Assembly: GCA_964521405.1 (NCBI GenBank)
Contig: CAZFRR010000065.1
Coordinates: 357 to 64,356 of the forward strand
Length of the DNA: 64,000 nt
Direction: 5' to 3'
DNA from: an uncultured Streptomycetaceae bacterium
GTDB lineage: Bacteria; Pseudomonadota; Gammaproteobacteria; Burkholderiales; SG8-41
In this document: one piece after another, positions 1,202 to 60,022 of the stretch
Numbering within the stretch: position 1 is the stretch's first letter
Layout of the letters: every line of letters begins with the position of its first letter
Made by a program: the position numbers and the translations under genes
Notes under the pieces: model-generated
Told to the model about the DNA's origin: nothing
Database searches by the model: none
The model's input: the letters and a program-made list of their open reading frames with translations, nothing else

Positions 1202-1233
1202 GTCACCCGTCACTGCGTCACTGCATCACTGCC
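1202..1233. repeat. Lone tandem array, 4 x 8 nt (GTCACCCG TCACTGCG TCACTGCA TCACTGCC)
   Basis: Read directly. It fills the convergent gap between the TctC stop (1177) and the thrC stop (1234) and ends 1 nt before the thrC stop codon. Confidence 0.8.
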
Positions 1234-2352
1234 TTACTTCATCCGCTCCCGTATGGCACGCTCGATGGCGGTCAACTCGGCATCCACCGTCAGCGGCTTG
1301 GCGCTCTGCGCGATGGCAACGTCGGGGTCCTTCAGGCCGTGACCGGTGAGCGTGCAGACGATGGTGCTGCCCTCGCCCACCTTTCCCAGCTCGAGATCCT
1401 TCAGCAGCCCGGCCAATGATATGGCCGACGCCGGCTCGCAGAAGATGCCTTCGGCCTGCGCCAGCAGCTTCTGCACGCGCAGGATCTCCTCGTCGGTGCA
1501 CTCCGCGAACCAGCCGCCGGACTCGCGGCTCGCCGCGAGCGCCTGCTGCCACGACACGGGGTTGCCGATACGGATGGCGGTGGCAATGGTCTCGGGATTC
1601 TCTACCGCTCGTCCCCTCACGATTGGCGCAGCGCCGGAAGCCTGATATCCCAGCATTATCGGCCGGCGCTCCACCAGCTTCTGCCTGCGGTACGGGCGCA
1701 TCCCCTCCGGCAGCTTCAGCGCAAGCGTGTCGGCGCCAGCCGATTCGCAGTAGCCGATCCAGTGCGCGGTGATGTTGCCCGCGTTGCCGACCGGCAGGGC
1801 ATGGTAATCCGGCACCTCGCCCAGTTCCTCGATCACCTCGAAAGCGATGGTCTTCTGGCCCTGGATGCGGTAAGGGTTGATGGAATTCACGATGTTGACC
1901 GGCGTCGTCCTTGCAACCTCCTGGACGAGGCGCATGCCGTCGTCGAAGTTGCCGCGGATCTGCAGCACCGTCGAGCCGTGCATCATCGCCTGCGACAGCT
2001 TGCCGAGCGCGATCTTGCCCTCCGGGATCAGCACGAAACAGGCGATGCCCGCGCGCGCGGCGTAGGCGGCGGCCGATGCCGAAGTGTTCCCGGTGGAGGC
2101 GCAGATGATCGCCCGGGCGCCTTCTTCCACCGCCCGCGTGACCGCCATCGTCATGCCGCGGTCCTTGAACGAGCCGGTGGGATTCAACCCCTCGAACTTG
2201 GCGAGGATGCGGACCTTCTTCCGCACCAGCCCCGGGAGGTTCTTCAACTCGATCAGCGGCGTCGCGCCCTCGTTCAACGAGATCACGCGCGCGCCCGCCG
2301 CGACCGGCAGACGGTCCCGGTATTTATCTATGAGGCCGGTGTAGTGCGCCAT
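1234..2352 (-). CDS. thrC: Threonine synthase
   Basis: 372-aa ORF with PLP-lysine context GSFKDRG. It lies downstream of hom, as in the classic hom-thrC arrangement. Confidence 0.95.
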   Translation of the reverse strand: MAHYTGLIDKYRDRLPVAAGARVISLNEGATPLIELKNLPGLVRKKVRILAKFEGLNPTGSFKDRGMTMAVTRAVEEGARAIICASTGNTSASAAAYAARAGIACFVLIPEGKIALGKLSQAMMHGSTVLQIRGNFDDGMRLVQEVARTTPVNIVNSINPYRIQGQKTIAFEVIEELGEVPDYHALPVGNAGNITAHWIGYCESAGADTLALKLPEGMRPYRRQKLVERRPIMLGYQASGAAPIVRGRAVENPETIATAIRIGNPVSWQQALAASRESGGWFAECTDEEILRVQKLLAQAEGIFCEPASAISLAGLLKDLELGKVGEGSTIVCTLTGHGLKDPDVAIAQSAKPLTVDAELTAIERAIRERMK

Positions 2353-2360
2353 CTCAAGGG

Positions 2361-2467
2361 GTGACTCGTTGCTCGTTTCTCGTGACTCGTGACTGATGCT
2401 TTTCGCCTCGTGGTTTGCAGCTGGTGGACAACGGCTGACGAGAAACGAGTAACGAGAAACGAGTCAC
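2361..2467. repeat. Short-period array hairpin, GTNNCTC / GAGNNAC flavour
   Basis: Left arm 2361-2395: GTGACTC GTTGCTC GTTTCTC GTGACTC GTGACTG. Right arm 2438-2467: GAC GAGAAAC GAGTAAC GAGAAAC GAGTCAC. The outermost units are perfectly complementary. The core is about 42 nt. Confidence 0.85.
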
Positions 2468-3777
2468 TAGTTCAGCTCTTCGAGTCGTATGCGGGTGACC
2501 TTGCCGACCACCACCGGCAGCTGCTCGATCTTCGCGATCGCCGCGTTCACGTGCTTCTCGACCGTGAGATGGGTCAGCAGGATGATGTCCACCTGGTCCT
2601 CGCCCTCGTGCGGCTCCTTCTGCACCATGGCATCGATGGAAATCGAAAGGTCGGCCAGGATGCGGGTGATGTCCGCGAGCACGCCCGGCCGGTCCTGGAC
2701 CCGCAGGCGCAGGTAGTAGGAGGTCTCGACCTCGCCCATCGGCAGGATCGGGGTGTCGGCAAGCCGGTCCGGCTGGAACGCAAGATGGGGCACGCGGTGC
2801 TCGGGGTCAGCCGTCAGCGTGCGCGCCACGTCCACCAGGTCCGCCACCACCGACGAGGCGGTCGGCTCGGCGCCAGCGCCAGCGCCGTAGTACAGGGTCT
2901 GCCCCACGGCATCGCCCTTCACCAGGATTGCATTCATCACGCCTTCGACATTGGCGATCAGGCGGCGCGCGGGTATCAGCGTCGGGTGCACCCGCAGCTC
3001 GATGCCGTTGCCCTTGCGCTTGGTGATGCCGAGCAGCTTGATGCGGTAACCCAGCTCCTCCGCGTAGCGGATATCCACCTGGGCCAGCTTCGAGATGCCC
3101 TCGGTATAGACCGCCTTGAACTGCATCGGGATGCCGAAGCCGATCGCCGCCATGATGGTCAGCTTGTGCGCGGCGTCCACGCCCTCGATGTCGAAAGTCG
3201 GGTCGGCCTCGGCATAGCCGCGGGCCTGCGCCTCCTTCAGCACCTCGGCGAAGCTCGACCCCTTGTCGCGCATTTCCGACAGGATGAAATTGCTGGTGCC
3301 GTTGATGATGCCGGCGATCCACTCGATGCGGTTGGCGGCGAGCCCCTCGCGCAGCGCCTTGACGATGGGGATCCCGCCGCCCACGGCGGCCTCGAACGCC
3401 ACCATCACGTCCTTCTTTTGGGCCGCGGCGAAAATCTCGTTGCCGTGCTGGGCGAGCAGCGCCTTATTGGCGGTGACGATGTGCTTGCCGTTGGCGATGG
3501 CCTTCAGCATGAGGTCCTTAGCGATGCCGGTGCCGCCGATCAACTCGACCACGATGTCGATTTCGGGGTTGCTCACGACCTCGTTGGCGTCGGCCGTCAC
3601 GGCGGCCTTGCCTCCGACCAGACGGCGTGCCCGGTCGAGATCCTTGTCCGCGACCATCTTCATGGTGATGGCGCAGCCGGCGCGACGGGCAATTTCCTCC
3701 TGGTTACGGGCGAGCACGGCAAACGTGCCGCCGCCCACGGTGCCGATGCCGAGCAGCCCGACGTTAATTGTTTTCAT
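2467..3777 (-). CDS. hom: Homoserine dehydrogenase
   Basis: 436 aa with NAD-binding N-terminus INVGLLGIGTVGGG and a C-terminal ACT-like region. Synteny with thrC supports the call. Confidence 0.95.
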   Translation of the reverse strand: MKTINVGLLGIGTVGGGTFAVLARNQEEIARRAGCAITMKMVADKDLDRARRLVGGKAAVTADANEVVSNPEIDIVVELIGGTGIAKDLMLKAIANGKHIVTANKALLAQHGNEIFAAAQKKDVMVAFEAAVGGGIPIVKALREGLAANRIEWIAGIINGTSNFILSEMRDKGSSFAEVLKEAQARGYAEADPTFDIEGVDAAHKLTIMAAIGFGIPMQFKAVYTEGISKLAQVDIRYAEELGYRIKLLGITKRKGNGIELRVHPTLIPARRLIANVEGVMNAILVKGDAVGQTLYYGAGAGAEPTASSVVADLVDVARTLTADPEHRVPHLAFQPDRLADTPILPMGEVETSYYLRLRVQDRPGVLADITRILADLSISIDAMVQKEPHEGEDQVDIILLTHLTVEKHVNAAIAKIEQLPVVVGKVTRIRLEELN

Positions 3778-3936
3778 AATGATGAATGATGAATGATGAA
3801 TGATGAACGGAAGAAATGGCCTGTCATGTTTCCGTCGATCACATCAATATTCATCAATGTCCTTTTTTGCCCACACTGCTCGCTTTTCATCGGTCCAATT
3901 TTCATTCCGCATTCATCATTCATCATTCATCATTCA
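3778..3936. repeat. Short-period array hairpin, AATGATG / CATTCAT flavour
   Basis: Left arm 3778-3807: 4 x AATGATG plus AA. Right arm 3903-3936: CATTCCG, then 3 x CATTCAT, then CATTCA. The core is about 95 nt and relatively AT-rich. The right arm contains the aminotransferase stop codon. Confidence 0.85.
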
Positions 3937-10635: not shown

Positions 10636-10636
10636 T

Positions 10637-10712
10637 GTTCCGGGTTCCGGGTTCCGGGTTGATGTGAACCTTGAACCTTGAACCTTGAACTCGGAACTCG
10701 GAACTCGGAACC
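10637..10712. repeat. Short-period array hairpin, GGTTC / GAACC flavour
   Basis: Left arm: 3 x GTTCCGG plus GTT (10637-10660). Loop: GATGT. Right arm: 3 x GAACCTT, 3 x GAACTCG, then GAACC (10666-10712). It fills the whole 81-nt moxR-DUF58 spacer. Confidence 0.9.
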
Positions 10713-10716
10713 AGGT

Positions 10717-11682
10717 ATGTACGCCGCCCTCAAGAACCGCTTCTACGACTGGCTGTTTCGGCTGCAGGGACGGGAGTCCGGCGTGATCGTGCTGGTGCAG
10801 CGGCGGGTTTTCATCCTGCCCTCGCGCCAGGGCCTGATGTTCGCCGTGGTGCTCCTGGTCATGCTCACCGGCTCGATCAATTACACGCTGGGCCTGGGCT
10901 TCGTGCTCACTTTTCTGCTGGTCGCGCTGGGCGTGAACGCCATGGTCCATACTTTCCGCAACCTGGCGAACCTCAGGGTGACGGCCGGCCGCTCGCATCC
11001 CGTGTTCGCCGGCGACATCGCGCAATTCATGGTTTACCTGGAAAACGGGGCCGATAACACCCGCTACGCCATCGGCCTCACCCAGGACCGGCAGCAAGCG
11101 ACATTCGTCGACGTGCCACCCCGGGCGATCGTGCCGGCATCGATTGGAATTCCCGCCCCGCGCCGCGGCGTGCTGCAACCGGGCCGGCTGACCCTCTTTA
11201 CCCGCTTCCCCCTCGGCCTCTATTACTCCTGGTCGTACGTCGAGTTCGACATGCGCTGCCTTGTCTATCCCCGCCCGGCAACCCCGGGCATCCCGCTGCC
11301 GCCCGCGACAGCGAGCTCCGGCACCGGCGCAGAGCACGGGCGGGGGCAGGAGGATTTTTCCGGATTGCGCCAGTACCATCTGGGCGATTCGCCGCGCCAT
11401 ATCGCGTGGAAAGCAGCCGCCCGGGACCAGGGGCTGCTCACCAAGCAGTTCAGCGGGCGCGCCGACACCGAGTTGTGGCTCGACTGGACCCAGCTGCCCC
11501 CGCAAATGGGTGTGGAGGAACGCCTGTCCCACCTGGCCCGCTGGGTGCTGGATGCGCATGCTGCCGCGATTTCCTACGGCCTGCGGCTGCCGGGCGTAAC
11601 GGTGGACCTGGCCGCCGGCGAGGCGCAGCGGGAGCGCTGCCTGGAAGCGCTTGCGCTTTTTGATCAAGAGCGTGATTCGTGA
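10717..11682 (+). CDS. DUF58 (vWA-like) protein
   Basis: ORF 10678..11682. The ATG at 10717 (MYAALKNRF) avoids the repeat-derived N-terminus. The DUF58-typical segment DFSGLRQYHLGDSPRHIAW is present. Confidence 0.88.
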   Translation: MYAALKNRFYDWLFRLQGRESGVIVLVQRRVFILPSRQGLMFAVVLLVMLTGSINYTLGLGFVLTFLLVALGVNAMVHTFRNLANLRVTAGRSHPVFAGDIAQFMVYLENGADNTRYAIGLTQDRQQATFVDVPPRAIVPASIGIPAPRRGVLQPGRLTLFTRFPLGLYYSWSYVEFDMRCLVYPRPATPGIPLPPATASSGTGAEHGRGQEDFSGLRQYHLGDSPRHIAWKAAARDQGLLTKQFSGRADTELWLDWTQLPPQMGVEERLSHLARWVLDAHAAAISYGLRLPGVTVDLAAGEAQRERCLEALALFDQERDS

Positions 11683-11783
11683 TGGGTGATTCGTCCCGTT
11701 CCAATGTCCACTTCCGGAGACGTGCGCGTAGGTCATCGACCAATTACTCGATAGAAATCATTGGAACGGGATTCGTGAATCGG
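11672..11783. repeat. Hairpin element with GTGATTC-type arms and a perfect 12-bp stem
   Basis: GTGATTC GTGATGG GTGATTC (11672-11692) overlaps the DUF58 stop. The perfect stem is CCCGTTCCAATG (11695-11706) paired with CATTGGAACGGG (11759-11770), followed by GATTCGTGAATCGG. Confidence 0.8.
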
Positions 11784-11796
11784 AATACGGCACTCA

Positions 11797-11838
11797 GAAC
11801 CTGAAACTCGAATCCCGGAACTCGGAACGCGGAACGTG
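11797..11838. repeat. Lone 7-nt array (GAACCTG AAACTCG AATCCCG GAACTCG GAACGCG GAACGTG)
   Basis: Read directly. The last unit contains the GTG start codon (11836) of the transglutaminase-like gene. Confidence 0.8.
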
Positions 11839-13791: not shown

Positions 13792-13797
13792 AATCAT

Positions 13798-13920
13798 GTT
13801 CCGGGTTCCGGGTTCCGGGTTCCGGGTTCCGGGTTCCGGGTTCCGGGTTCAAGATTGGAGTGGGCTGCAAATGGAGGATTCCGACTTTGAACTCGGAACT
13901 TTGAACTCGGAACCTTGAAC
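13798..13920. repeat. Short-period array hairpin, GGTTC / GAACC flavour
   Basis: Left arm: 7 x GTTCCGG plus GTTCAAG (13798-13853). The core is 29 nt. Right arm: GACTTTG AACTCGG AACTTTG AACTCGG AACCTTG AAC (13883-13920). The copy number was checked against the translation of ORF 13643..13918. Confidence 0.9.
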
Positions 13921-13927
13921 GCCTGTT

Positions 13928-14818
13928 TTAGGCGGGCGGGAGCAGCTTGACCGGATCCACCGGCTTGCCAAAGCGGCGGATCTCGAAGTGGAGCTTGACC
14001 TGATCGGTGTCGGTCGAGCCCATCTCCGCGATCCTCTGGCCCTTGGAGACGGCCTGCCCTTCCTTCACCAGCAGTTCGTTGTTGTGCGCGTAGACGCTCA
14101 AGAAGGTGTCGTTGTGCTTGATCACGATCAGCTTGCCGAAGCCGCGTATGCCGGTGCCGCTGAAGATCACCCGGCCCGGTGCGCTCGCCAGCACCGGCTG
14201 GCCCAGCTTGCCGGCGATGCCAATGCCTTTCAGGTTGGCACTGTCGTTGAAAGTGCTGACCACCTTGCCGCTGGCCGGCCAGCTCCAGGCAACACCCTCG
14301 CCCCCTTCTTCGCGGGCGGCAGGGCGAGCTTCCGGCTTGGCCAGCTGGGCGTAAGCCTGGTCCGAGTATGGCGCCCGTACCGCCTTGGGCTGGGTCTTGA
14401 CGTTGTCGCCGGCAGCCGCCGTCTCTCCGATCGGGCGTCCCTGCACTCCAGGGGCCGCCTTGAACGGCGCAGCCGTCGCCGCGGATGAAGGCGAACTCAG
14501 CCGCAACTGCTGGCCGATACGGATGACCCCGGGGTCCGTAATGTTGTTCCACTGGGCCAGCTCGCGATAATCGAGGCCGTGGTCGAGCGCGATGCTGAAA
14601 AGGGTATCGCCCTTCCTGACAGTATAGAAGTCAGGGCGTGTATCCGCTGGCTTCAAGGCGGGCGTGACCGGTGCGAGCTTGATCGGCGTGGGCTTCGCCG
14701 CCGCCGGTCTCGCCTCGGGCGATCGATCTGAAACGGGTGCGCCGCTGCGGGTGGAGCAACCTGCCGCAAACGCCGCTACCAGCACGAATGCCAGCGCAAT
14801 TTCTTGAACTCGGAACAT
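13928..14818 (-). CDS. nlpD: LysM / M23-peptidase lipoprotein NlpD
   Basis: Lipobox AAGC, LysM segment YTVRKGDTLFSIA, and a C-terminal M23 domain. surE-pcm-nlpD synteny supports the call. Confidence 0.92.
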   Translation of the reverse strand: MFRVQEIALAFVLVAAFAAGCSTRSGAPVSDRSPEARPAAAKPTPIKLAPVTPALKPADTRPDFYTVRKGDTLFSIALDHGLDYRELAQWNNITDPGVIRIGQQLRLSSPSSAATAAPFKAAPGVQGRPIGETAAAGDNVKTQPKAVRAPYSDQAYAQLAKPEARPAAREEGGEGVAWSWPASGKVVSTFNDSANLKGIGIAGKLGQPVLASAPGRVIFSGTGIRGFGKLIVIKHNDTFLSVYAHNNELLVKEGQAVSKGQRIAEMGSTDTDQVKLHFEIRRFGKPVDPVKLLPPA

Positions 14819-14840
14819 TGAACTCGGAACTCGGAACGGG
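14806..14840. repeat. Lone 7-nt array (GAACTCG GAACATT GAACTCG GAACTCG GAACGGG) spanning the nlpD start codon
   Basis: Read directly. The complement of CAT at 14816-14818, inside unit 2, is the nlpD ATG. Confidence 0.8.
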
Positions 14841-17374: not shown

Positions 17375-17396
17375 TAAAAACCCCGAACAATAATAG

Positions 17397-17486
17397 CCAC
17401 AGAGGGCACAGAGGACACAGAGATTTCAAATGCGGGCGCGGACCGGTTGGTCTTGATTCCCTCTGTGATCTCTGTGTTCTCTGTGG
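17397..17486. repeat. Short-period array hairpin, 9-nt period, CACAGAG+NN / CTCTGTG+NN flavour
   Basis: Left arm: CCACAGAGGGCACAGAGGACACAGAGAT (17397-17424). Right arm: CCCTCTGTGATCTCTGTGTTCTCTGTGG (17459-17486). The core is 34 nt. Confidence 0.85.
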
Positions 17487-17503
17487 CAGAAGTGTTTGCG
17501 ATT

Positions 17504-20593: not shown

Positions 20594-20693
20594 GTGACTC
20601 GTTATTCGTTTCTCGTTCCTGGTGACCCGGCTGAGCCGGAGCTTCACTCGAATCGGCAATTACGAGGAACGAGCGACGAGAAACGAGGGACGG
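20594..20693. repeat. Short-period array hairpin, GTNNCTC / GAGNNAC flavour, abutting the tRNA-Pro 3' end
   Basis: Left arm: GTGACTC GTTATTC GTTTCTC GTTCCTG GTGACCC (20594-20628). Right arm: ACGAGGA ACGAGCG ACGAGAA ACGAGGG ACGG (20662-20693). The core contains the mini-hairpin CCGGC-TGA-GCCGG. Confidence 0.85.
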
Positions 20694-20696
20694 AAT

Positions 20697-23514: not shown

Positions 23515-23522
23515 ATCTAGAT

Positions 23523-23665
23523 AACCGCCATGACGCCAAGACGCCAAGCAATTCCAACGAAACCAATAAAAAACAGATTCATTATTGCGATAGGCATTCC
23601 ACCAGCGCCCTGTCTGGTTGAATTTTGAAATAATTGCTGTTCCTGGCGCCTTGGCGTCATGGCGG

Positions 23666-23667
<2 letters not shown>
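23523..23667. repeat. Hairpin element inside the pheS-pheT spacer (GCCAAG / CTTGGC flavour)
   Basis: Left arm: AACCGCCATGACGCCAAGACGCCAAG (23523-23548). Right arm: CCTGGCGCCTTGGCGTCATGGCGGTT (23642-23667). The outer 18 bp are perfectly complementary. The core is 93 nt and AT-rich. Confidence 0.9.
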
Positions 23668-24755
<1,088 letters not shown>

Positions 24756-24783
24756 CCCAATTTTGGGAAACCGGGATCTGCGA

Positions 24784-32453: not shown

Positions 32454-32498
32454 TGCCCTGTAACGCGCGAGGCGCTTGCCGGTGGACGCTTAAAGACC

Positions 32499-32596: not shown

Positions 32597-32629
32597 GATT
32601 TTTGGGAAACTAATCAGTAAAATGCCCCA

Positions 32630-33190: not shown

Positions 33191-33209
33191 ACCTAGAAAA
33201 AGCCGCTTG

Positions 33210-33338
33210 CCACAGAGGACACGGAGTTCACAGAGGAAAATCATTTCCGTATGTCATTATCGAGCCTCACCCATCAGGTGAGCGTGGCGCGCTGACTCAA
33301 CCTTTTGAATCTCTCTGTGTTCTCTGTGACCTCTGTGG
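33210..33338. repeat. Short-period array hairpin, 9-nt period, CACAGAG+NN / CTCTGTG+NN flavour (second copy)
   Basis: Left arm: CCACAGAGGACACGGAGTTCACAGAGG (33210-33236). Right arm: TCTCTCTGTGTTCTCTGTGACCTCTGTGG (33310-33338). The core is 73 nt and has an inner CTCACC/GGTGAG hairpin. Confidence 0.85.
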
Positions 33339-33368
33339 CTGAATGACAGTCTTTTTTGCGAACATGCA

Positions 33369-33989: not shown

Positions 33990-33997
33990 CTAAATGC

Positions 33998-34099
33998 GTG
34001 ATTCGTGATTGATGATTCGTGAGTCGAGCGTTCTTGCGCCATCCTATTCCCGCATGGGCAGAGAAAAACAAAAAATCGATTCACGACTCACGATTCACG
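33998..34099. repeat. Short-period array hairpin, GTGATTC / GAATCAC flavour
   Basis: Left arm: GTGATTC GTGATTG ATGATTC GTGAGTC (33998-34025). Right arm: TC GATTCAC GACTCAC GATTCAC G (34076-34099). The core is 50 nt. Confidence 0.85.
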
Positions 34100-34112
34100 C
34101 CTTTTCAAGACG

Positions 34113-34469: not shown

Positions 34470-34777
34470 GGAAGGATTACGACGGGTCGCTAAGGACGCA
34501 AAGGCCGCGAAGGAAATAATAATTACAACAAAGGTCGCTAAGACAGCGCCAAGGGTGCTATCGGCAGGACAATTTGGAATAGATTTGAACCACGGCCGAA
34601 CCGGATTACTAAACATTACAATTCCGACAGCGTTTCCTATTCCCCGCTTGGCGCTGTCTTCGCGTCCTTTGGTTGGTTTTCGATAATGTATTCCTTCGCG
34701 GCCTTGGCGGCCTTTGCGTTGAGGCTTCTATTTTCCTTCGCGGCCTTGGCGGCCTTCGCGTTGAAGCTTTGCTGTCA
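34444..34777. repeat. Composite nested-palindrome element (CGCGAAGGA / TCCTTCGCG, GCCAAG / CTTGGC units)
   Basis: It starts CACCGCCAAG and ends AAGCTTTGCTGTCA. The inner perfect 14-bp pair is AAGACAGCGCCAAG (34540-34553) with CTTGGCGCTGTCTT (34647-34660). The core is AT-rich. The last 62 nt are about 85% identical to 40194-40254. Confidence 0.8.
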
Positions 34778-35506
34778 CCGCTCCGACTGGAGCGTCCCGT
34801 CGACCAGCCGCAGGATGCGATCGGCCCGCCGGGCGATCTCGGGGTCATGCGTCACGATCACGAGGCTCGTCCCGCTGCTGCGATTCAACTCCAGCATCAG
34901 TTCGAACACGGTTTCCGCCGTGTGCCGGTCGAGGTTCCCGGTGGGCTCATCCGCGAGCACGCAGGCCGGCCGGGTCACCAGCGCCCGCGCGAGCGCGGCG
35001 CGCTGGCGCTCGCCGCCCGAGAGCTCCCCGGGACGATGCTGCAGGCGGTGATCGAGACCGACCTGCTTCAGCAAGCCTGCCGCCGCGCCGTAAGCCGCGC
35101 TCTTCTCCACGCGCCGGATAAGAAGCGGCATCGCCACGTTCTCCAGCGCCGAGAATTCCGCCAGCAGATGATGGAACTGGTAGACGAAGCCTAGCGACCG
35201 GTTGCGCGTCGCACCGCGCTCCGCCTCGCTTTGCCGGCTCAGGTCCTGCCCCAGCACCTTCACCTCGCCTTGCGTGGCGTCATCCAGCCCGCCGAGGAGA
35301 TGAAGCAGCGTGCTCTTGCCCGAGCCCGAGGCGCCGACAATCGCCACGCGCTCTTGCGCCGCGATGTCGAGATCCACCCCCGCCAGCACCGGCACCGCCA
35401 CCTTGCCCTGGTGAAACGTCTTGCGGAGGTTGCGGCAGGAAATTACCGGCACGCCGGCTGCGCCGGAGTGCTGAGTGCTGAGTGATGAGTGCTGAGCGCT
35501 ATTCAT
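34775..35506 (-). CDS. lolD: Lipoprotein-releasing system ATP-binding protein LolD
   Basis: Walker [10 protein letters not shown], signature LSGGERQR, Walker [11 protein letters not shown]. The start is uncertain: either ATG 35506 (overlapping the lolC/E stop as ATGAATAG) or GTG 35452. Confidence 0.9.
35466..35500. repeat. Lone 7-nt array (GAGTGCT GAGTGCT GAGTGAT GAGTGCT GAGCGCT) at the lolC/E-lolD junction
   Basis: Read directly. It is translated as [12 protein letters not shown] if the ATG at 35506 is used. Confidence 0.8.
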
Positions 35507-38072: not shown

Positions 38073-39817
38073 TGCCGCAGGTCATCACTCGTGAAGTGCC
38101 CCGGGGCGCCGCTGATTCGCTGGTTGCTGACGGCGTGCCGCCGTTGCTGGCGCGTGTCTACGCCGCCCGCGGCATTTTGACGGCACGCGACCTCGCGCAG
38201 GAATTCGAGCACCTCGCGCCTCTCGCCGCCATGCTCAATCTGCGGGAAATGGCCGCGCGGCTGGCCGATGCGATCGCGGAGCGCAGAAAGCTGCTGATCG
38301 TCGCCGACTACGACGCCGATGGCGCCACCGCGTGCGCCGTGGGCTTGCGCGCGCTGCGCGCCTTTGGCGCGTCGGTCGAATTCCTGGTGCCGAACCGTTT
38401 CGAATACGGCTACGGGCTCTCTCCGGAGATCGTGCGTCTCGCCCACGCGCAATTCCGCCCCGACATCCTGATCACGGTGGACAACGGCATCTCGAGCCTC
38501 GAGGGCGTCGCGGAAGCGAACCGCCTGGGGATGGCGACGCTGATCACCGATCACCATTTGCCCGGAGAACGGCTGCCGGATGCCACCTGCATCATCAATC
38601 CCAATCAGCCCGGCTGCGCCTTCCCGAGCAAGAACCTGGCCGGCGTCGGTGTCATGTTCTACCTCATGCTGGCCCTCAGGGCCGAGCTCCGCGAGCGCGG
38701 CGCGTTCGGCCAAAGTCGAAAGGAAGACGGGTCATCCTTCATCCTTCATCCTTCATCCTTGGGTTCGGCGGAGCCGAACCTCGCCGACCTCCTCCCGCTC
38801 GTCGCTCTGGGCACCGTGGCCGACGTAGTGCCACTAGATCGCAACAACCGCATCCTGGTGCAGCAGGGTCTCGCCCGCATCCGCGCGGGCCGCATGCAGC
38901 CGGGTATCGCAGCACTGTTCCAGGTCGCGGATCGCGATCCGCGCCGCACCGCGGCGCGCGACCTGGGTTTCGTGCTGGGCCCGCGGTTGAACGCCGCCGG
39001 ACGGCTCACCGACATGGCGCTCGGCATCGAGTGCCTCGCCACGGATGACGCCGGCCGGGCACACACCATCGCAACCGAGCTCGATCGCTTGAATCGCGAG
39101 CGGCGAGGGATCCAGTCCGACATGCAGGATGAAGCGCTCGCGGCGGTAGAAGCGCAGGATTTCGGAGAGAGCTACACGCTCGCCCTCTTCGATCCCGCCT
39201 GGCACCAAGGGGTGGTCGGCATCGTGGCCGGGCGCATCAAGGACCGCTTTCACCGCCCTGCCATCGCGTTCGCGCGCGGCAATCCGGGCGAGATCCGGGG
39301 CTCGGGGCGCTCGATCACCGGCCTTCACTTGCGCGACGCGCTCGACCGGGTCGCAGTGTCGCACCCCGGGCTCATTGCGAAGTTCGGCGGTCACGCCGCT
39401 GCAGCAGGCCTGACTATCAGGGAAAGCGACTTCGAGCGCTTCCGCGCGGCTTTCGAGCAAGCGGCGCAATCACTGCTCTCACCAGCCGACCTTGAGCGCG
39501 TCATCGAAACCGACGGCGGCCTAGCCCCCGAGGATTGCACCACTGAGACCGTTCAACTGCTGTCAGGCCCGGTGTGGGGGCAGGGATTTCCCCCGCCGCG
39601 GTTCTGCGACGAGTTCGAGGTTGCGGCCCAGCGCATCGTGGGTGGCAAACATCTCAAGATGACGCTCGCACGTGGCGCTCTCCGCATCGACGCCATACGC
39701 TTCCAGAGCACGGAGGCTGCCCCGCCCCGCATCCGCGCGGTCTACCAGCCTTCGCTCAACGAATGGAATGGCCGCATCTCGGTGCAGCTTACGGTCGAGC
39801 ACTGGGAGGAAGCCTGA
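38072..39817 (+). CDS. recJ: Single-stranded-DNA-specific exonuclease RecJ
   Basis: 581 aa with DHH motifs IVADYDADG, ITVDNGI and LITDHH, plus a DHHA1 GGH context. Confidence 0.95.
   Translation: MPQVITREVPRGAADSLVADGVPPLLARVYAARGILTARDLAQEFEHLAPLAAMLNLREMAARLADAIAERRKLLIVADYDADGATACAVGLRALRAFGASVEFLVPNRFEYGYGLSPEIVRLAHAQFRPDILITVDNGISSLEGVAEANRLGMATLITDHHLPGERLPDATCIINPNQPGCAFPSKNLAGVGVMFYLMLALRAELRERGAFGQSRKEDGSSFILHPSSLGSAEPNLADLLPLVALGTVADVVPLDRNNRILVQQGLARIRAGRMQPGIAALFQVADRDPRRTAARDLGFVLGPRLNAAGRLTDMALGIECLATDDAGRAHTIATELDRLNRERRGIQSDMQDEALAAVEAQDFGESYTLALFDPAWHQGVVGIVAGRIKDRFHRPAIAFARGNPGEIRGSGRSITGLHLRDALDRVAVSHPGLIAKFGGHAAAAGLTIRESDFERFRAAFEQAAQSLLSPADLERVIETDGGLAPEDCTTETVQLLSGPVWGQGFPPPRFCDEFEVAAQRIVGGKHLKMTLARGALRIDAIRFQSTEAAPPRIRAVYQPSLNEWNGRISVQLTVEHWEEA
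38732..38759. repeat. Perfect 4 x 7-nt tandem repeat (TCATCCT) inside the recJ coding sequence
   Basis: Codons S221-S229 (SSFILHPSS) are encoded by TCATCCT x 4. The position was computed from the recJ start at 38072. Confidence 0.9.
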
Positions 39818-39824
39818 ACAGCCT

Positions 39825-40254
39825 CACCGCCAAGGTAGCCAGGGACGCGAAGGAGCAGAAAAGCCTCGACACGAAGGACACAAAGGACACAAAGGACACT
39901 AAGGAAAAACGAATCAGAATTGATTCGGTGACCAGTCGCACCTGACCGGCCGCCGGACGGTTTACGGCTTTTGATCTTGGGGCCCCTGTGCGCTGCCGAG
40001 TAGCGCCCTGCCCCGGTGATGAGTGATAGGTGATGGGTGATGGGTCTTTTATTCCGAATCTCTGAACCAGTAGTGTCTCTTGTAGGCCACCCTTGGCGCG
40101 TTTCCTTCGCGACCTTCAGGTTTTGCCTTTGACCTTATTATTCTTCCCTTCGCGGTAAAGCTTTTATTTTCCTTGGCGACCTCCGCGTCCTTCGCGGTGA
40201 GGCTTTTCTGTTCCTTCGCGGCCTTGGCGTCCTTCGCGGTAAAGCTTTACGTCA
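39825..40254. repeat. Composite nested-palindrome element (same family as 34444-34777) with internal arrays
   Basis: It starts CACCGCCAAG and ends AAGCTTTACGTCA. It contains 3 x (N)AAGGACAC with a 9-nt period near 39873-39907, a CGAATC/GATTCG hairpin, GTGATGA GTGATAG GTGATGG GTGATGG (40016-40045), and TCCTTCGCG units on the right. Confidence 0.8.
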
Positions 40255-42999: not shown

Positions 43000-43096
43000 A
43001 GTTTTGAGTTTTGAATGTTGAGTTTTGAGTTGGATTGCGCCCGTTATTCGAACTCAGCACTCAGCACTTAACACTCAACACTCAAAACTCAAAACT
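43000..43096. repeat. Short-period array hairpin, AGTTTTG / CACTCAA flavour
   Basis: Left arm: AGTTTTG AGTTTTG AATGTTG AGTTTTG AGTT (43000-43031). The loop is 18 nt. Right arm: GAACTCA GCACTCA GCACTTA ACACTCA ACACTCA AAACTCA AAACT (43050-43096). Confidence 0.85.
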
Positions 43097-43100
43097 GTCC

Positions 43101-46930: not shown

Positions 46931-47129
46931 GTTCAAAGTTCAAGGTTCAAGGTTCAAGGTTCAAAGTTCAAGGTTCAAGATTGTCAGTGCGAGCTGCCGC
47001 TCGCGATTTTGAACCCGGAACCCGGAACCCGGAACCCGGAACCCGGAACACGGAACCCGGAACCCGGAACCCGGAACCTGGAACCTGGAACCTGGAACTC
47101 GAAACTCGGAACCCGGAACCCGGAACTCA
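46931..47129. repeat. Largest array hairpin in the window, GGTTC / GAACC flavour (7 + 17 units)
   Basis: Left arm, 7 units of GTTCAA(A/G) (46931-46979). The 31-nt core carries the hairpin GCGAGC-TGCC-GCTCGC followed by GATTTT. Right arm, 17 units (47011-47129): 5 x GAACCCG, GAACACG, 3 x GAACCCG, 3 x GAACCTG, GAACTCG, AAACTCG, 2 x GAACCCG, GAACTCA. Checked against ORF translations. Confidence 0.9.
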
Positions 47130-47953: not shown

Positions 47954-48950
47954 TGTGAAACCTCCGACAGCTGCAGAAAATTATAACTCAACCGATCCCG
48001 GCACGACTCCCATCAGGCTCGCCGTGCCCGCCGGGTGCGCCGGCATGCGGTTGGACCAGGCCCTGGCGCACTTGTTGCCGGCGCATTCGCGAAGCCGGCT
48101 CGCACAGTGGATCAAGGCCGGCCGCGTCAGCCTCGCCGGTCGCGCCGCGCCGCCCAAGAAAAAAGTCCGGGAGGGCGAAGCGATCGAGGTCCTGCCCTCC
48201 CTGGATCCGGCAGCGGCGGCGCATCGCGCGGAAGACATTCCGCTCGAAATCGTGCACGAGGACGGCGCACTGCTGGTCGTCAACAAGCCGGCCGGGCTTG
48301 TCGTTCACCCCGGCAGCGGCAACTGGCAGGGCACGCTGTTGAATGCCCTGCTGGGACATGCGCCGGCGCTTGCCGGCATACCGCGTGCGGGGATCGTACA
48401 TCGCCTGGACAAGGACACCAGCGGCCTCCTGGTCGTCGCCAGGACGCTCCCCGCCCAGACCCATCTCGTGCGTCAGCTCCAGGCGCGCAGCGTGAAGCGG
48501 GAATATCTTGCAGTGGTTCACGGCCGCATCGCGCGTGGCGGCAGGATCGACGCCCCCATCGGCCGCCATCCGGTCAAGCGCACAAAAATGGCGGTGAGCG
48601 CGCGCGGCCGCTCGGCGGTGACGCACTATGAGGTGCTCGAACGTTTTGCCCAGGCCACGCTGCTGCGCTGCCGGCTCGAAACCGGGCGCACCCACCAGAT
48701 ACGCGTGCATCTCGCTTCGCTGGGCCATCCGCTGATCGGTGACCCTGCTTATGGCAAACGCAACAGCACGATTCCCTTCAGCCGTCAGGCGCTGCACGCG
48801 GAACGGCTCGGACTGGTGCATCCGCAAACCGGAAAACCGATGAGCTGGCACGCCGAGCCCCCCGCCGACCTGCGGCAGTTGCTAGAAACCCTGCGCGAAA
48901 CGCAAGGACAGCACGAGAAACGAGCAACGAGCAACGAGTCACGCCGTTGA
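47943..48950 (+). CDS. rluD: 23S rRNA pseudouridine synthase RluD
   Basis: ORF 47862..48950 with an S4 domain and the catalytic segment HRLDKDTSG. The start is uncertain: ATG 47943 overlaps the bamD start, and GTG 47955 is the alternative. Confidence 0.88.
48913..48947. repeat. Lone 7-nt array (ACGAGAA ACGAGCA ACGAGCA ACGAGTC ACGCCGT) forming the last 12 rluD codons
   Basis: Read directly. It ends at the rluD stop (48948-48950) and encodes [12 protein letters not shown]. Confidence 0.8.
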
Positions 48951-48952: not shown

Positions 48953-49738
48953 ATGAAATCGCCACACCCGGACTGGATCGTTCCCGACTGGCCCGCGCCG
49001 GCCAACGTCAAGGCCTTCATCACCACGCGGTCCGGTGGCGTCAGTGGCGGCGCCTTTGCCAGCCTGAATCTCGGGCTGCGCACGGATGACGACGCTCAGG
49101 CGGTCGCCGCCAACCGCAAACGATTGTGCGAGTCGCTGCCGCAGCAGCCGCAATGGCTGAAGCAGGTGCACGGCGCCAGCGTCGTCGAGGCCGACCGGCT
49201 TGCCGGGGTGCCCGAGGCTGATGCGGCGATTGCCCGCCAACCGGATACGGTCTGCGCGGTGCTGGTGGCCGATTGCATACCGGTGCTGCTCGCCGACCGC
49301 GCCGGCACCACCGTCGCCATGGCTCACTGCGGATGGCGCGGGCTGGCAGGCGGGATCCTGGAAAACACGCTAATGCGAATGTCTCAGCCGCCTGGGCAAA
49401 TCCTCGCCTATCTCGGCCCCGGCATCGGCCCGCGCGCTTTCGAAGTGGGCGCGGACGTGCGCGACGCATTCCTGGCAGTCGATGCACAGGCGGAAATCGC
49501 ATTCAAACCACACGCCACCGGCAAATGGCTGGCCGACCTCTTTCTGCTCGCGCGCCAGCGCCTCGCCCGCGCCGGCCTGAGCAGCATTCACGGCGGAGAG
49601 CTGTGCACCTTTACCGACTCACAGCGCTTCTTCTCCTATCGCCGCGACCGCACGACCGGCCGGATGGCAGCGGTCATTTGGCTGTCCGCCGAAACGGCGA
49701 ACAGCCAAATGACCGGAGGGATGAAGGCGGAAGGATGA
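48953..49738 (+). CDS. pgeF: Peptidoglycan editing factor PgeF (YfiH, laccase-domain protein)
   Basis: ORF 48947..49738 with ATG at 48953. rluD-yfiH synteny supports the call. The segment HCGWRG is present. Confidence 0.88.
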   Translation: MKSPHPDWIVPDWPAPANVKAFITTRSGGVSGGAFASLNLGLRTDDDAQAVAANRKRLCESLPQQPQWLKQVHGASVVEADRLAGVPEADAAIARQPDTVCAVLVADCIPVLLADRAGTTVAMAHCGWRGLAGGILENTLMRMSQPPGQILAYLGPGIGPRAFEVGADVRDAFLAVDAQAEIAFKPHATGKWLADLFLLARQRLARAGLSSIHGGELCTFTDSQRFFSYRRDRTTGRMAAVIWLSAETANSQMTGGMKAEG

Positions 49739-49829
49739 AGGATGACCTTGCCCGGCGCGAGCCGGGAGAAGGCCCTTTCGCCTTTCCCCTTTTCCTTTTG
49801 CCTTTTGCCTTTTGCCTTTCGACTTCCGC
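49715..49829. repeat. Short-period array hairpin, GATGAAG / CTTTTGC flavour
   Basis: The left arm GGAGG GATGAAG GCGGAAG GATGAAG GATGACC (49715-49747) includes the pgeF stop. The core hairpin is CCCGGC-GCGA-GCCGGG. Right arm: CCTTTCG CCTTTCC CCTTTTC, 3 x CTTTTGC, CTTTCGA CTTCCGC (49774-49829). Confidence 0.85.
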
Positions 49830-49877
49830 CTTATCACGTATAATCCGCGCCTCGTCTGAAACCCTGCAAAGATCTTG

Positions 49878-54059: not shown

Positions 54060-55422
54060 GCGGGCGGCGCGACCGCGCGCCCCGCACGCAGCACCCCAAC
54101 CCCGGGTCGGGTTTGTTTCCCTCGGTTGCCCCAAGGCGCTGGTGGATTCCGAGCGCATCCTCACCGAGCTGCGCGCCGAAGGCTACCTGATCTCTCCCAC
54201 TTACGAGGGCGCCGACCTCGTCGTGGTCAATACCTGCGGCTTCATCGATTCCGCCGTCGATGAATCGCTCGGCGCGATCGGCGAGGCGCTCTCGGCCAAC
54301 GGCAAGGTGATCGTCACCGGCTGCCTCGGCGCCAAGGGCGACATCGTCAGGAAAACCCACCCGCGAGTGCTCGCGGTGACCGGGCCGCATGCGACCGACG
54401 AAGTGATGCGCGCGGTCCACCGGCATCTGCCGCAACCCCCTTACGATCCGTTTGCGAGCCTGGTGCCGGTCCAGGGCATCAAGCTCACCCCGGCGCATTA
54501 CGCCTATCTCAAGATCGCCGAAGGCTGCAATCACCGCTGCACCTTCTGCATCATCCCCTCGATGCGGGGCGATCTCGTGAGCCGGCCGGTCGGAGAAGTC
54601 CTGCGGGAAGCGGAAAACCTGGTGAAAGCGGGCGTACGAGAGCTGCTCGTCATCTCGCAGGACACCAGCGCCTACGGCGTGGACGTCAAGTACCGCACCG
54701 GCTTCTGGAACGGCCGGCCGGTGAAGACGCGCATGACCGAGCTGGCCCGCGCGCTGGGCGGCCTCGGCGCGTGGGTGCGGCTGCACTACGTCTACCCCTA
54801 CCCGCACGTGGACGAAGTCATCCCGCTGATGGCGGAAGGCAGATTGCTGCCCTACCTGGATGTGCCGTTCCAGCACGCAAGCCGCAGGATATTGAAGCTC
54901 ATGAAGCGGCCGGCCAGCGCCGAGAATAATCTCGAGCGCATCCGCCGCTGGCGGGAGATCTGCCCGGAGATCACGCTGCGCAGCACATTCATCGCCGGCT
55001 TTCCGGGCGAGACGGCGTCCGAGTTCGAGGAATTGCTCGCTTTCCTCGAGCAAGCGCAACTCGACCGCGTCGGTTGCTTCGCCTATTCGGCGGTGGCTGG
55101 CGCCGCGGCCAACGCCCTGCCCGGCCCCGTGCCGGAAGCAGTGAAAGAAGAGCGTCGCGCCCGACTCATGAAGCTCCAGGAAAAAATCAGCGCCGGCCGG
55201 CTCCAGCGCAAAATCGGGAAAACACTGACCGTCCTGGTGGACGAGGTCAGTGCCGGGGGTGCGGTGGCGCGCTCCAGCGCCGATGCGCCCGAAATCGACG
55301 GCGTCGTCCACGTGGCGCCCGCTGCCGGGCTGAAACCCGGCGCCTTCGCCCGGGTCCGCGTGACGCGCGCCGATACCCACGATCTGTGGGCCGAATGGGT
55401 GAGTGATTCAGTGATTCAGTGA
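54019..55422 (+). CDS. rimO: Ribosomal protein S12 methylthiotransferase RimO
   Basis: Radical-SAM segment [11 protein letters not shown], with a UPF0004 N-terminal domain and a TRAM C-terminal domain. It is collinear with recalled E. coli RimO from [10 protein letters not shown] onward. The ATG at 54019 overlaps phaR by 41 nt. Confidence 0.9.
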
Positions 55423-55496
55423 TTGAGTGATTGAGTGCGAGAGGCCGCGCATTCAGCATAAGGCTACTGATCACCTAAACACCCAATCACCTAATT
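55401..55496. repeat. 8-nt-period array hairpin ((G/C)AGTGATT / AATCACCT flavour)
   Basis: The left arm GAGTGATT CAGTGATT CAGTGATT GAGTGATT GAGTGCGA (55401-55440) spans the rimO stop. Right arm: GATCACCT AAACACCC AATCACCT AATT (55469-55496). The array continues after the inserted element as AATTAATT ACCCAATC AC. Confidence 0.8.
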
Positions 55497-57608: not shown

Positions 57609-57610
57609 GC

Positions 57611-58627: not shown

Positions 58628-58656
58628 TTGTTAATGAGAATGATTCTTGATAGTAT
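58628..58656 (+). promoter_or_regulatory. Sigma70-type promoter (TTGTTA-N17-TAGTAT) with an overlapping Fur-box-like site
   Basis: TTAATGAGAATGATTCTTGATAG (58631-58653) matches about 13 of 18 positions of the GATAATGATAATCATTATC consensus. It lies about 50 nt upstream of the Fe(3+)-binding protein gene. Confidence 0.55.
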
Positions 58657-58705
58657 TGAACTCGCAGCCCCAGTTATTCGCCAGAATATTCACCATAGCT
58701 CTTTT

Positions 58706-59743
58706 ATGATCAAACACTTGCGTAGTATAGCCGGCTTTTTGCTGGCGCTGACATGCGTCATAGGGATGAATTCCACCAGCGCCCAGGAAAAAGTGTTGAA
58801 CCTCTATTCGTCCCGCCATTACGAGACGGACGAGGCGCTCTACACCCAGTTCACCCAGCAGACCGGCATCAAGTTGAACCGCATCGAGGGCGGCGAGGAC
58901 GCGCTGATCGAGCGCATCCGCAACGAGGGCGACAAGAGCCCGGCCGACGTGCTGATCACCGTGGACGCAGGCCGGCTGTGGCGCGCCGAACAACTGGGGC
59001 TGTTCCAGCCGGTCAAGTCCAGGGTGCTGGAAGCCCGCCTGCCCACCTCCTACCGTCATCCCGACGGCCTGTGGTTTGGCTACTCGGCGCGGGCGCGCAT
59101 CATCGCTTACAGCAAATTGCGGGTTAAGCCCGGCGAGATTGCCAGCTACGAAGATCTAGCCAACCCGAAATGGAAAGGCAGGATCTGCACGCGCTCCGCG
59201 GGACACGTCTACAACCTTTCGCTCATCAGTTCTCTGGTCAGTCACCTGGGCGAAGCCAGGACCGAGGAATGGGCCAGGGCCGTCGCTGCCAACCTCGCGC
59301 GCGCGCCCAAGGGCGGTGACTCCGACCAATTGAAGAGCGTGGCGGCCGGAGAATGCGATCTGGCGATCAGCAATACCTATTACTACGTCCGCCTGCTGAG
59401 ATCGAGTAAACCGGACGAGCGCGAGGTGGCGAAAAAAGTGGGCGTGATACTGCCGAACCAGAAGGACCGCGGCACACACGTCAATGTTTCAGGCGCGGGC
59501 ATGCTGAAGCACGCGCCCCATAAGGAAGCCGCCATGCTCTTCCTCGAGTACCTGGCGAGCGATGAAGCGCAGAATTACTTCGCCAACGGCAATAACGAAT
59601 GGCCGGTAGTGCCGACGGTCAAGCTCGATAACGCCGCGCTCGCCACGCTCGGCAAGTTCAAGACCGACTCCCTGAATGTCGCCGCGATCGGAAAAAATCA
59701 GCCGGTCGCGCAGAAAATCGCGGACCGCTCCGGCTTCAAATGA
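58706..59743 (+). CDS. Fe(3+) ABC transporter substrate-binding protein (FbpA/FutA-like)
   Basis: ORF 58511..59743. The ATG at 58706 gives the signal peptide MIKHLRSIAGFLLALTCVIGMNSTSAQ. The segment VLNLYSSRHYETDEALY is present. Confidence 0.88.
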   Translation: MIKHLRSIAGFLLALTCVIGMNSTSAQEKVLNLYSSRHYETDEALYTQFTQQTGIKLNRIEGGEDALIERIRNEGDKSPADVLITVDAGRLWRAEQLGLFQPVKSRVLEARLPTSYRHPDGLWFGYSARARIIAYSKLRVKPGEIASYEDLANPKWKGRICTRSAGHVYNLSLISSLVSHLGEARTEEWARAVAANLARAPKGGDSDQLKSVAAGECDLAISNTYYYVRLLRSSKPDEREVAKKVGVILPNQKDRGTHVNVSGAGMLKHAPHKEAAMLFLEYLASDEAQNYFANGNNEWPVVPTVKLDNAALATLGKFKTDSLNVAAIGKNQPVAQKIADRSGFK

Positions 59744-59781
59744 TGTACCGGGGGGGCCACTCCCTTCGTTAGAACCGGTAA

Positions 59782-60022
59782 CAGAATGAGTGGTCGCGGA
59801 GCAAACGAACCACCCCCACCCTGGCCCTCCCGGTCCCCCACTCCTTCCCTCTCCCCCGAAAGGGGAGAGGAAGCTCGAGCCTCCCCTCTCAGCTTGGGAG
59901 AGGGGCGAGGGGGAGGGAATGTTTATTTCCTCTCGCAGAAAAGAGTTCTCCTTCCCCCTGAGGGGGAAGAAAAAATTCCCCTTCCCCCTCAGGGGGAAGG
60001 TTGGGATGGGGGTGGTTTCACC
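59782..60022. repeat. GC-rich nested-palindrome element, copy 2 (inverted relative to copy 1, with a 78-nt nested insertion)
   Basis: It is collinear with the reverse complement of 36858-37023. The exception is that the loop of the first hairpin is replaced at 59831-59908 by two extra hairpins (TTCCCTCTCCCC-CGAA-AGGGGAGAGGAA and CCTCCCCTCTC-AGCT-TGGGAGAGGGG). Confidence 0.85.

Follow-up and report, generated by a model that had tools for sequence, protein, structure and literature searches.

What are the short tandem arrays that fill so many of the spacers in a 64 kb stretch of DNA from an uncultured bacterium (assembly GCA_964521405.1, contig CAZFRR010000065.1, positions 357 to 64,356; hereafter the window, in whose coordinates all positions are given)? 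Known since 1990, microsatellites with heptamer units are more common in bacteria than any other long simple repeat. Those in the window frequently take a composite form, in which an array of 7–9 nt units is followed, across an unrelated core, by an array of the reverse-complement unit, an architecture first proposed in an original prediction made by inspection of the window. The elements are of the same class as the GGGAATC inverted repeats of Xanthomonas and the hairpins of the cyanobacterial short tandemly repeated repetitive (STRR) sequences, and we interpret them, with moderate confidence, as inverted microsatellites that slippage drives and that 3' and intercistronic spacers tolerate, perhaps with some slight usefulness.

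Arrays were called with Tandem Repeats Finder (TRF) at periods of 7–9 nt, with at least 2.8 copies, a score of at least 38 and no overlap between calls. Thirty-five arrays in the window pass, against a mean of 0.15 in 20 block-wise dinucleotide-preserving shuffles. Period 7 accounts for 24 arrays, period 8 for four and period 9 for seven, in agreement with the predicted predominance of heptamers; the longest single array (47011-47126) runs to 16.6 copies, matching the predicted upper size of 17 units, and each of the ten predicted unit flavours was found where it had been placed. Units consist of a conserved 4–5-nt core and 2–3 free positions at a fixed spacing of 7–9 nt. Only the array at 24666-24725 (GGCTGGG) has a G-rich unit, the remaining units being mixed, with ∼25% of each base. 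Curation yielded about 25 loci, or roughly one per 2.6 kb (17 paired, with array, unrelated core and reverse-complement array, and 8 solo arrays), a recount somewhat below the 28 or so originally estimated.

The repeat search of the window placed a reverse-complement partner 4–110 nt from many of the arrays. When the window was pooled with 160 related loci (labelled L001 and so on, and described below), and units were called reverse-complementary if their consensi differed by at most two mismatches, neighbouring arrays separated by gaps of no more than 160 nt formed 24 reverse-complement pairs and 2 direct ones (p = 1e-5): inverted pairing is the rule among neighbouring arrays. Folding was also more favourable than for dinucleotide shuffles at all 17 paired loci (z between -2.4 and -11.7). 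Six that were refolded had z values between -6.2 and -8.4, and 0 of 200 shuffles reached the same stability. The stems drawn for these six consist of 5–9-bp runs broken at regular intervals by 1x1 or 2x2 internal loops, the long imperfect hairpins with periodic mismatches that had been anticipated. Repeat search, neighbour orientation and folding thus all bear out the proposed architecture.

The arms do not, however, mirror one another unit by unit. When unit order was shuffled within arms, the resulting energies were indistinguishable from those of the native order (between 0.07 and 1.0 of the shuffles equalled or surpassed it in stability), so that pairing resides in the unit consensus, without mirrored variants. 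One of the grounds on which the original prediction was to fall, arms no more complementary than shuffled arrays, applies in part: the arms do better than dinucleotide shuffles, and no better than shuffles of unit order. The stem is accordingly register-free, in that the arms can pair in many registers: in the 10636 locus the first arm pairs with the distal half of the second, the remainder being looped out. Arm lengths may be strikingly unequal (7 vs. 16.6 and 3.4 vs. 7 copies; 5 degenerate vs. 13 perfect units in L082).

The loci, with coordinates, unit composition and setting, are as follows:

1208..1243: solo array of 8-mers, (GTCACTGC)x3-4, in the convergent spacer between tctC and thrC; called by TRF.
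2361..2465: paired, 5 x GTNNCTC, 35-nt core, 5 x ACGAGNN, in the spacer from hom to thrC; sense-strand z of -6.2.
3778..3936: paired, (AATGATG)x4.3, 96-nt core, (TCATTCA)x5, in the spacer from an aminotransferase gene to hom, adjoining the hom start codon.
10637..10713: paired, (GTTCCGG)x3.4, 7-nt core, (GAACCTT)x3.7 plus (GAACTCG)x3.6, filling the spacer from moxR to the DUF58 gene; folded.
11671..11835: short CGTGATT array plus a degenerate solo array, (TCGGAAC)x8, ending at the tgpA start codon.
13798..13920: paired, (GTTCCGG)x7.6, core, (GAACNNN)x5.3, in the convergent spacer between tgpA and nlpD; folded.
14804..14837: solo array, (GAACTCG)x4.6, at the nlpD start, downstream of pcm.
17396..17487: paired 9-mers, (CACAGAGGN)x3, 36-nt core, (CTCTGTGNN)x3; folded.
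20594..20696: paired, 5 x GTNNCTC, 33-nt core, 5 x ACGAGNN, between hbpS and tRNA-Pro.
23522..23668: paired 8-mers, GACGCCAA, 95-nt AT-rich core, TTGGCGTC, filling the spacer from pheS to pheT.
24666..24725: solo array, (GGCTGGG)x7.6, between a terminator hairpin proximal to rplT and the pheS start.
29976..30068: paired, (AATGATG)x4, 23-nt core, (TCATCAT)x4.4, in the convergent spacer between an FAA-hydrolase gene and comEC; folded.
32498..32601: paired, CGTGATT, a G/C-rich palindrome of a second repeat family as core, AATCACG; the only array locus in a divergent gap.
33209..33339: paired 9-mers, CACAGAGGN, 74-nt core, CTCTGTGNN.
33997..34101: paired, CGTGATT, 42-nt core, ATTCACG.
34488..34760: complex paired 9-mers, with a CGCRAAGGN arm, a tandem pair of CCTTCGCGG arms and an inner hairpin.
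35466..35500: solo array, (GAGTGCT)x5, at the junction of lolE and lolD.
38732..38760: solo array, (TCATCCT)x4.1, inside recJ and translated in frame.
39826..40250: complex, GACRCGAAGG 9-mers, (GGTGATG)x4.4 as a solo array and a 42-nt repeat, in three copies, with TCCTTCGCG 9-mers, in the spacer from recJ to prfB.
43000..43097: paired, (AGTTTTG)x4.6, 20-nt core, (ACTCAAC)x6.4, in the spacer from lysS to acs; folded.
46931..47129: the largest paired locus, (GTTCAAG)x7, 31-nt core with a mini-hairpin, (GAACCCG)x16.6, in the convergent spacer between eamA and bamD.
48913..48938: solo array, (ACGAGCA)x3.7, within the rluD 3' end, immediately ahead of the yfiH start.
49714..49832: paired, (GGATGAA)x3.9 overlapping the yfiH 3' end, mini-hairpin core, (CCTTTYG)x8.6, with G-U-rich pairing on the + strand.
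55401..55495: paired 8-mers, (AGTGATTC)x4.5, 29-nt core, (ATCACCTA)x3.2, followed by G/C-rich palindromes.

Three places that had been taken for tandem arrays (the 36.9 kb and 59.8–60.0 kb loci, and the 55.5 kb locus in part) are instead members of a second, unrelated dispersed family of G/C-rich palindromes, CCYTCCCCC-N3-5-GGGGGARGG, often followed by AGGGTGGGGGTG. Some nine copies are present, at 32520-32565, 36863-36997, 55506-55631 and 59790-60015. These palindromes cluster at 36.9 kb, where the gap is divergent, and at 55.5 and 59.9 kb, where the gaps are convergent; the 36.9 and 59.9 kb clusters are mutual inverted copies. At 32.5 kb another palindrome serves as core to the CGTGATT array hairpin. 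Some of the palindromes have a T-run on either side, like bidirectional terminators.

The gene map of the window, which was checked with Pfam, leaves 9% as non-coding DNA; base composition is 64% G+C, and the genes are ordinary housekeeping ones, including thrC-hom, thrS-infC-rpmI-rplT-pheST-ihfA, recJ-prfB-lysS, bamD/rluD and phaCBR. Two tRNAs are the sole Rfam matches at gathering thresholds; extending the Rfam search of the window to E-values of up to 0.1 added spurious eukaryotic miRNA hairpin precursors, and no family that fits the arrays. Sequence from the target genome comprised the 64 kb window; its nearest relatives in public genome and metagenome collections are uncultured betaproteobacterial metagenome-assembled genomes labelled Burkholderiales or Nitrosomonadaceae, with best protein identities of 87% for homoserine dehydrogenase and 90% for BamD, and the 160 related loci served as the comparative set.

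Placement relative to genes is far from random. Twenty-eight of the 35 arrays lie wholly inside the 9% of non-coding DNA (binomial p ∼2e-23). Among gaps of at least 50 nt in the window, arrays occupy 7/8 convergent, 12/21 co-directional and 1/5 divergent ones, so that the deficit in divergent gaps is, within the window alone, a trend (Fisher p = 0.08). In orthologous spacers of the relatives, arrays occur in 24/166 convergent or co-directional spacers vs. 1/59 divergent copies of the DUF498/aminotransferase gap (p = 0.003). These counts replace those originally given (22 of 30 tandem or convergent gaps against 2 of 10 divergent gaps), and the skew itself reaches significance once orthologous spacers of relatives are pooled. 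Spacers that hold arrays in the window also hold them more often in relatives than do other co-directional spacers (24/166 vs. 3/68, p = 0.02).

The first arm usually begins 1–40 nt past a stop codon, and the element often occupies the entire spacer; hairpins are also found within operons that must be read through (pheS to pheT, hom to thrC, moxR to DUF58). Solo arrays are inclined to sit directly upstream of start codons (11780, 14804, 24666, 35466). A few arrays enter genes: the rluD and yfiH reading frames have array sequence as their 3' ends, and the recJ array, (TCATCCT)x4, together with an adjacent mini-hairpin, is in frame within a loop of RecJ (recJ 38072-39817, + strand), where it encodes ...GSSFILHPSS.... 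RecJ of relative L097, 81% identical, carries a longer array-derived insertion at the equivalent place, and the segment is absent in L120. RecJ itself acts, as a single-strand exonuclease, on DNA strands that have slipped or been displaced.

How do the arrays change? Adjacent units are unusually alike (summed Hamming distance 164 vs. 198 ± 7.6 when permuted, with 0 of 2000 permutations as low), and TRF additionally reports 14-nt super-periods. Both observations argue for local slippage, and the former puts on a quantitative footing the earlier remark that identical variant units sit side by side, as expected of unit-by-unit expansion.

Comparison among relatives reveals very fast turnover. Array density falls from 0.55 per kb in the window to ∼0.09 per kb in the relatives. 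The hom-thrC spacer carries CTCGT/ACGAG units in the window and in L002, GTTC/GAAC units in L001, and CGCRRAGG-type 9-mers in L017, L018, L020 and L025; it measures 82–217 nt where arrays are present, vs. 2–30 nt in several other relatives. In the convergent bamD-eamA spacer, AAGGTTC/GAACCTT units are shared by the window, L082 (13 copies) and L096, four other unit pairs are found in L093, L095, L099 and L100, and L081, L090 and L097 have a long, plain hairpin with a single-copy AAGGTTC...GAACCTT as its outer stem. L097 and L099 are 98.4% identical in bamD, and yet their spacers are entirely different, with the plain hairpin in the former and a GGATGAG/TCATCCT pair in the latter; a third variant, GTTCCAA/CCTTGAA, is found in L096, which matches L090 at 93% identity through eamA, and the spacers of L018 and L030 also differ between flanks that are 96% identical. 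In L018, a near-identical element of ∼120 nt, arms and core included, stands on both sides of hom (9850-9990 and 11300-11420). At L030 11320-11460, the copy downstream of hom seems to contain a different 9-mer hairpin, ACAGGATTN / AAATCCTGT, nested in the remnants of a first element. The same architecture is seen in the same spacers of relatives, under the same or different units; the elements are also dispensable, since in many relatives these sites have next to no spacer.

Several well-known repeat classes can be set aside. CRISPR arrays require direct repeats of 23–50 nt with unique spacers of similar length, and the units here, of 7–9 nt, directly abut one another, as the original prediction had recognized. 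Repetitive extragenic palindromic (REP) elements, known from enterobacteria and pseudomonads, are fixed palindromes of 20–40 nt and conserved sequence, moved by REP-associated tyrosine transposases (RAYTs). With these, and with the related bacterial interspersed mosaic elements (BIMEs) and REPINs, the arrays share abundant imperfect palindromes and a niche behind genes, between cistrons and in convergent gaps; unlike them, they have expandable microsatellites as arms, no conserved 20–40-nt palindrome, and cores that are unrelated. Alignments of cores flanked by the same flavour revealed no similarity in the window or across the 160 loci, except for the L018 duplicate and one orthologous spacer, in accord with the earlier claim that distant loci of one flavour have unrelated cores. 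Inspection of flanks disclosed no target-site duplications at arm boundaries. MITEs were considered and rejected for want of shared cores and target-site duplications. Classical MITE or REP behaviour is hence unsupported, as had been argued for REP/BIME elements, and the Rfam search likewise matched no such family to the arrays.

Closer counterparts are found among heptamer arrays. Cyanobacterial STRR heptamers were reportedly described by Mazel et al. in 1990. Their units include CCCCAGT, TTGGTCA and CAACAGT, and these are absent from the 51 heptamer classes found here. STRR sequences usually have repeats of 7 bp and can form hairpins, for example between hupS and hupL, for which effects on transcript stability, translational coupling or termination have been proposed (Devine et al. 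2009, PMC2670836). The resemblance lies in several heptamer types being dispersed in intergenic and intercistronic DNA and capable of forming hairpins between cistrons (PMC2670836); the original choice of STRR as an analogue was a good one. The units and the phylum differ, and inverted pairing is the rule here (24 to 2), whereas paired inverted arrays are reportedly few in Nostoc (PMC4692102).

Xanthomonas campestris offers a still closer parallel in the matter of pairing: it has 186 GGGAATC-type heptamer arrays, including 70–75 convergent inverted pairs able to form stem-loops (Rehm et al. 2015, PLoS One, PMC4692102). Those arrays are 89–93% intergenic, follow the upstream open reading frame (ORF) by a mean of 28 nt and are under-represented between divergent genes; their length and sequence vary at the same spacers of related species, and no regulatory effect was found (PMC4692102). 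Common to both systems are tandem 7-nt units with conserved and free positions, close inverted pairs, a location behind ORFs and a deficit in divergent gaps. The Xanthomonas unit, (GGGANTN)n in 2 to 26 copies, is G-rich and forms G-quadruplexes, which were the focus of that study (PMC4692102). Here, in an uncultured betaproteobacterial lineage, there are at least ten unit families, almost none with a G-tract (only the GGCTGGG array at 24666-24725 qualifies as G-rich), as well as periods of 8 and 9, and the density is about tenfold higher (∼1 locus per 2.6 kb vs. ∼1 array per 27 kb). G-quadruplex potential is consequently not what defines the class, because the same architecture is built here without G-tracts. 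The novelty implied by the original prediction was overstated, given that inverted heptamer pairs behind ORFs are known in Xanthomonas (PMC4692102) and hairpins in STRR sequences (PMC2670836). The class is already described; what is new is the host lineage, the many families that are not G-rich, the 8- and 9-nt periods and the roughly tenfold density.

More distant relations include the TAACTGA heptamers of marine Beggiatoaceae, which are intergenic, in 2–6 copies, with 169 direct sets and one indirect repeat (PMC4679880). They resemble the present arrays in being TGA-containing intergenic heptamers often placed right before start codons (compare the solo arrays at 11780, 14804, 24666 and 35466), and differ in being of a single unit type that is almost exclusively repeated directly. 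According to accounts of the survey of simple sequence repeats (SSRs) by Mrazek et al. (2007), heptanucleotides are the most abundant long SSRs in many genomes, with Burkholderia, Xanthomonas and cyanobacteria being rich in them (PMC4679880, PMC4692102); polymerase slippage is, in MacGregor's summary of that work, the proposed driver of long SSRs (MacGregor 2015, PMC4679880). As far as these accounts go, the survey, which covered SSRs of 5–11 nt, dealt with single arrays only, and the composite of array, core and reverse-complement array is not described in them.

Slippage is also the process on which our preferred explanation is built. The results above show that each arm lengthens or shortens independently, one unit or sometimes two at a time, by replication slippage, and that the arms match at the level of the unit consensus only, with many pairing registers and periodic internal loops. 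They also show that the elements build up behind genes and between cistrons, with very few in coding sequence or divergent promoter gaps, and that whole spacers are replaced very fast between close relatives. The second arm may originate through copying, by fold-back or template switch, across a small hairpin already in place; a mini-hairpin is often present in cores. The bias in location would mainly reflect where such DNA is tolerated, and the stem-loops, when transcribed, might act in the manner of REP/BIME elements, as barriers to 3' exonucleases or weak attenuators, and not as efficient terminators. Among the roles that had been proposed for the arrays, that of a selfish, slippage-driven element fits best, the similarity of adjacent units supporting slippage.

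Several results weigh against slippage as the whole account. Pure in-situ slippage from arbitrary stems should yield units specific to each locus; the heptamers CGTGATT, GACTCGT, GATGGGT, CATCATT and CAAGGTT, among others, recur at non-orthologous loci and in different genomes, and every flavour keeps a constant order of arms (its polarity) across loci. Unit classes are joined by 52 one-mismatch links vs. 25.5 ± 5 in random sets, a count inflated by paired arms and orthologous arrays. Units containing TGA are found in 23 of 42 arrays, against 9.4 ± 2.7 expected from composition, and TAA and TAG are almost absent from the units of these arrays; since 7 is not a multiple of 3, three units of a TGA-bearing array suffice to put a stop codon into each of the three frames. 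The replacement of whole spacers between relatives that are 93–98% identical, in turn, calls for recombination or insertion beyond slippage. A trans-acting enzyme may also be encoded beyond the 64 kb window.

These observations lend some weight to the notion that the arrays are the ends of non-autonomous mobile or copied families, loosely like REPINs, MITEs or cyanobacterial small dispersed repeats, with an enzyme encoded elsewhere seeding intergenic hairpins and nested insertions diversifying the cores. Such families would account for a small unit repertoire common to loci and genomes, for conserved arm polarity and for the excess of one-mismatch links. The GTTC/GAAC flavour occupies four consecutive spacers at 10636-14837 (moxR to DUF58, DUF58 to tgpA, the convergent tgpA-nlpD gap and nlpD/pcm; 10.6–14.8 kb) and recurs elsewhere in the window only at 46.9 kb; the run, for which a rough post-hoc p is ∼0.01, suggests local spread between neighbouring spacers. 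The shared repertoire, the interlinked units, the TGA excess, this run and the L018 duplicate around hom, core included, together keep a copying or mobile model alive. Also in its favour are the near-identical relatives in which a given spacer holds an element, lacks it or holds another in its place, the L030 element resembling a new hairpin within an older one, the core of the 32498 locus (a palindrome of a different repeat family) and two CACAGAGG loci that have common termini, GCCACAGAGG...CTCTGTGGC. Against it stand the unrelated cores of same-flavour loci with the exceptions noted above, the absence of target-site duplications, arm lengths and unit variants that differ freely between loci, and a Pfam search that detected no RAYT or other transposase gene in the window. 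On balance we regard mobile or copied families as the main rival to our preferred reading, though an unlikely explanation, supported by the shared repertoire and the replacement of whole spacers.

Could the hairpins instead be cis-acting RNA elements, maintained by selection as mRNA stabilisers, as sites for RNase III or RNase E, or as attenuators that set the expression of neighbouring genes? Great stability, a start 1–40 nt past stop codons, depletion in divergent gaps and an architecture that orthologous spacers keep under different units would all suit such a function, as would the recurrence of array spacers in relatives (24/166 vs. 3/68, p = 0.02); loci 10636, 13796 and 49712 pair much better on one strand through G-U pairs, and similar proposals exist for STRR hairpins (PMC2670836). 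Energies of the two strands nevertheless show no consistent bias, and hence no G-U signature of selection at the transcript level: among co-directional spacers of the window, four loci favour the sense strand, three the antisense strand and three neither, and the 17 spacers with arrays in relatives show a mean difference of -1.07 ± 7.3 kcal/mol (8 loci vs. 6). Unit variants show no mirrored covariation between arms, arm lengths are grossly unequal, many relatives dispense with almost the entire spacer, no U-tract follows the stems, and study of the Xanthomonas arrays disclosed no regulatory effect (PMC4692102). Selected RNA elements appear to us improbable. By analogy, an REP-like effect of the array hairpins on mRNA may be inferred, REP elements providing a plausible model for effects on mRNA stability, and a stabilising role is possible.

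A role in termination, also among the original proposals, fares poorly. Scans of the window for terminators detected no U-tract or T-run after the array hairpins; with several of these lying inside operons that must be read through, among them pheS-pheT and hom-thrC, they are not efficient intrinsic terminators. The candidates that matched the consensus for intrinsic terminators in these scans were the separate G/C-rich palindromes, and not the array hairpins.

Decidedly speculative is the idea that a dedicated enzyme of the lineage (a hairpin-targeting transposase or nuclease, a template-copying polymerase or a reverse transcriptase) writes defined units of 7–9 nt on both sides of a hairpin. 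Were this so, the flavours would be families written by the system rather than accidents of slippage, and the shared repertoire with its fixed polarity, the TGA excess and the replacement of spacers between near-identical strains would be explained.

Least probable are DNA-level binding sites for nucleoid-associated, regulatory or cold-shock-type single-strand-binding proteins, one heptamer per protein: the conserved 4–5-nt core with 2–3 free positions at fixed spacing, the limited unit repertoire and the reported binding of CspB to heptamer direct repeats, one protein per heptamer (as cited in PMC4679880), are what one would expect of such sites, but at least ten unrelated unit cores would demand many specificities, a 7-nt period fails to align sites along a single face of the helix, close relatives freely gain and lose the elements, and solo or paired forms with unequal arms show no logic of dosage.

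Two regions with array-bearing spacers have features of their own. On the - strand at 24720-24760, between rplT and pheS, a canonical stem-loop, GAGGCTGAAGGGCCTC, is followed by TTTTTTT, consistent with the usual attenuator of the pheST leader; the (CCCAGCC)n array sits between this stem-loop and the pheS start. Downstream, pheT (21496-23514, - strand) starts with MKFSENWLR at 23514 and encodes only 672 aa, in which Pfam matched no counterpart of the N-terminal tRNA-binding (EMAP-like) domain of Escherichia coli PheT. The pheS-pheT spacer is normally tiny; here it measures 151 nt and is filled by the array hairpin with its AT-rich core. Next to the complex recJ-prfB spacer, the prfB frame extends openly from ∼40243 to its ATG at 40330, which may represent the usual programmed +1 frameshift of release factor 2.

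In practical terms, arrays of this kind can extend ORF calls (as at the starts of lolD and acs and the ends of rluD and yfiH), insert in frame, as in recJ, and break short-read assemblies. For the class to which slippage-driven inverted microsatellites would belong, the window represents an extreme form of the paired hairpin architecture, with about one locus per 2.6 kb and at least ten unit families. The options for its mechanism are narrowed by the occurrence of different units in the same spacers, by the differences between near-identical relatives, and by the lack of both mirrored covariation and strand bias. An uncultured betaproteobacterial clade has thereby been identified in which the gain, loss and expansion of such elements could be followed across close genomes.

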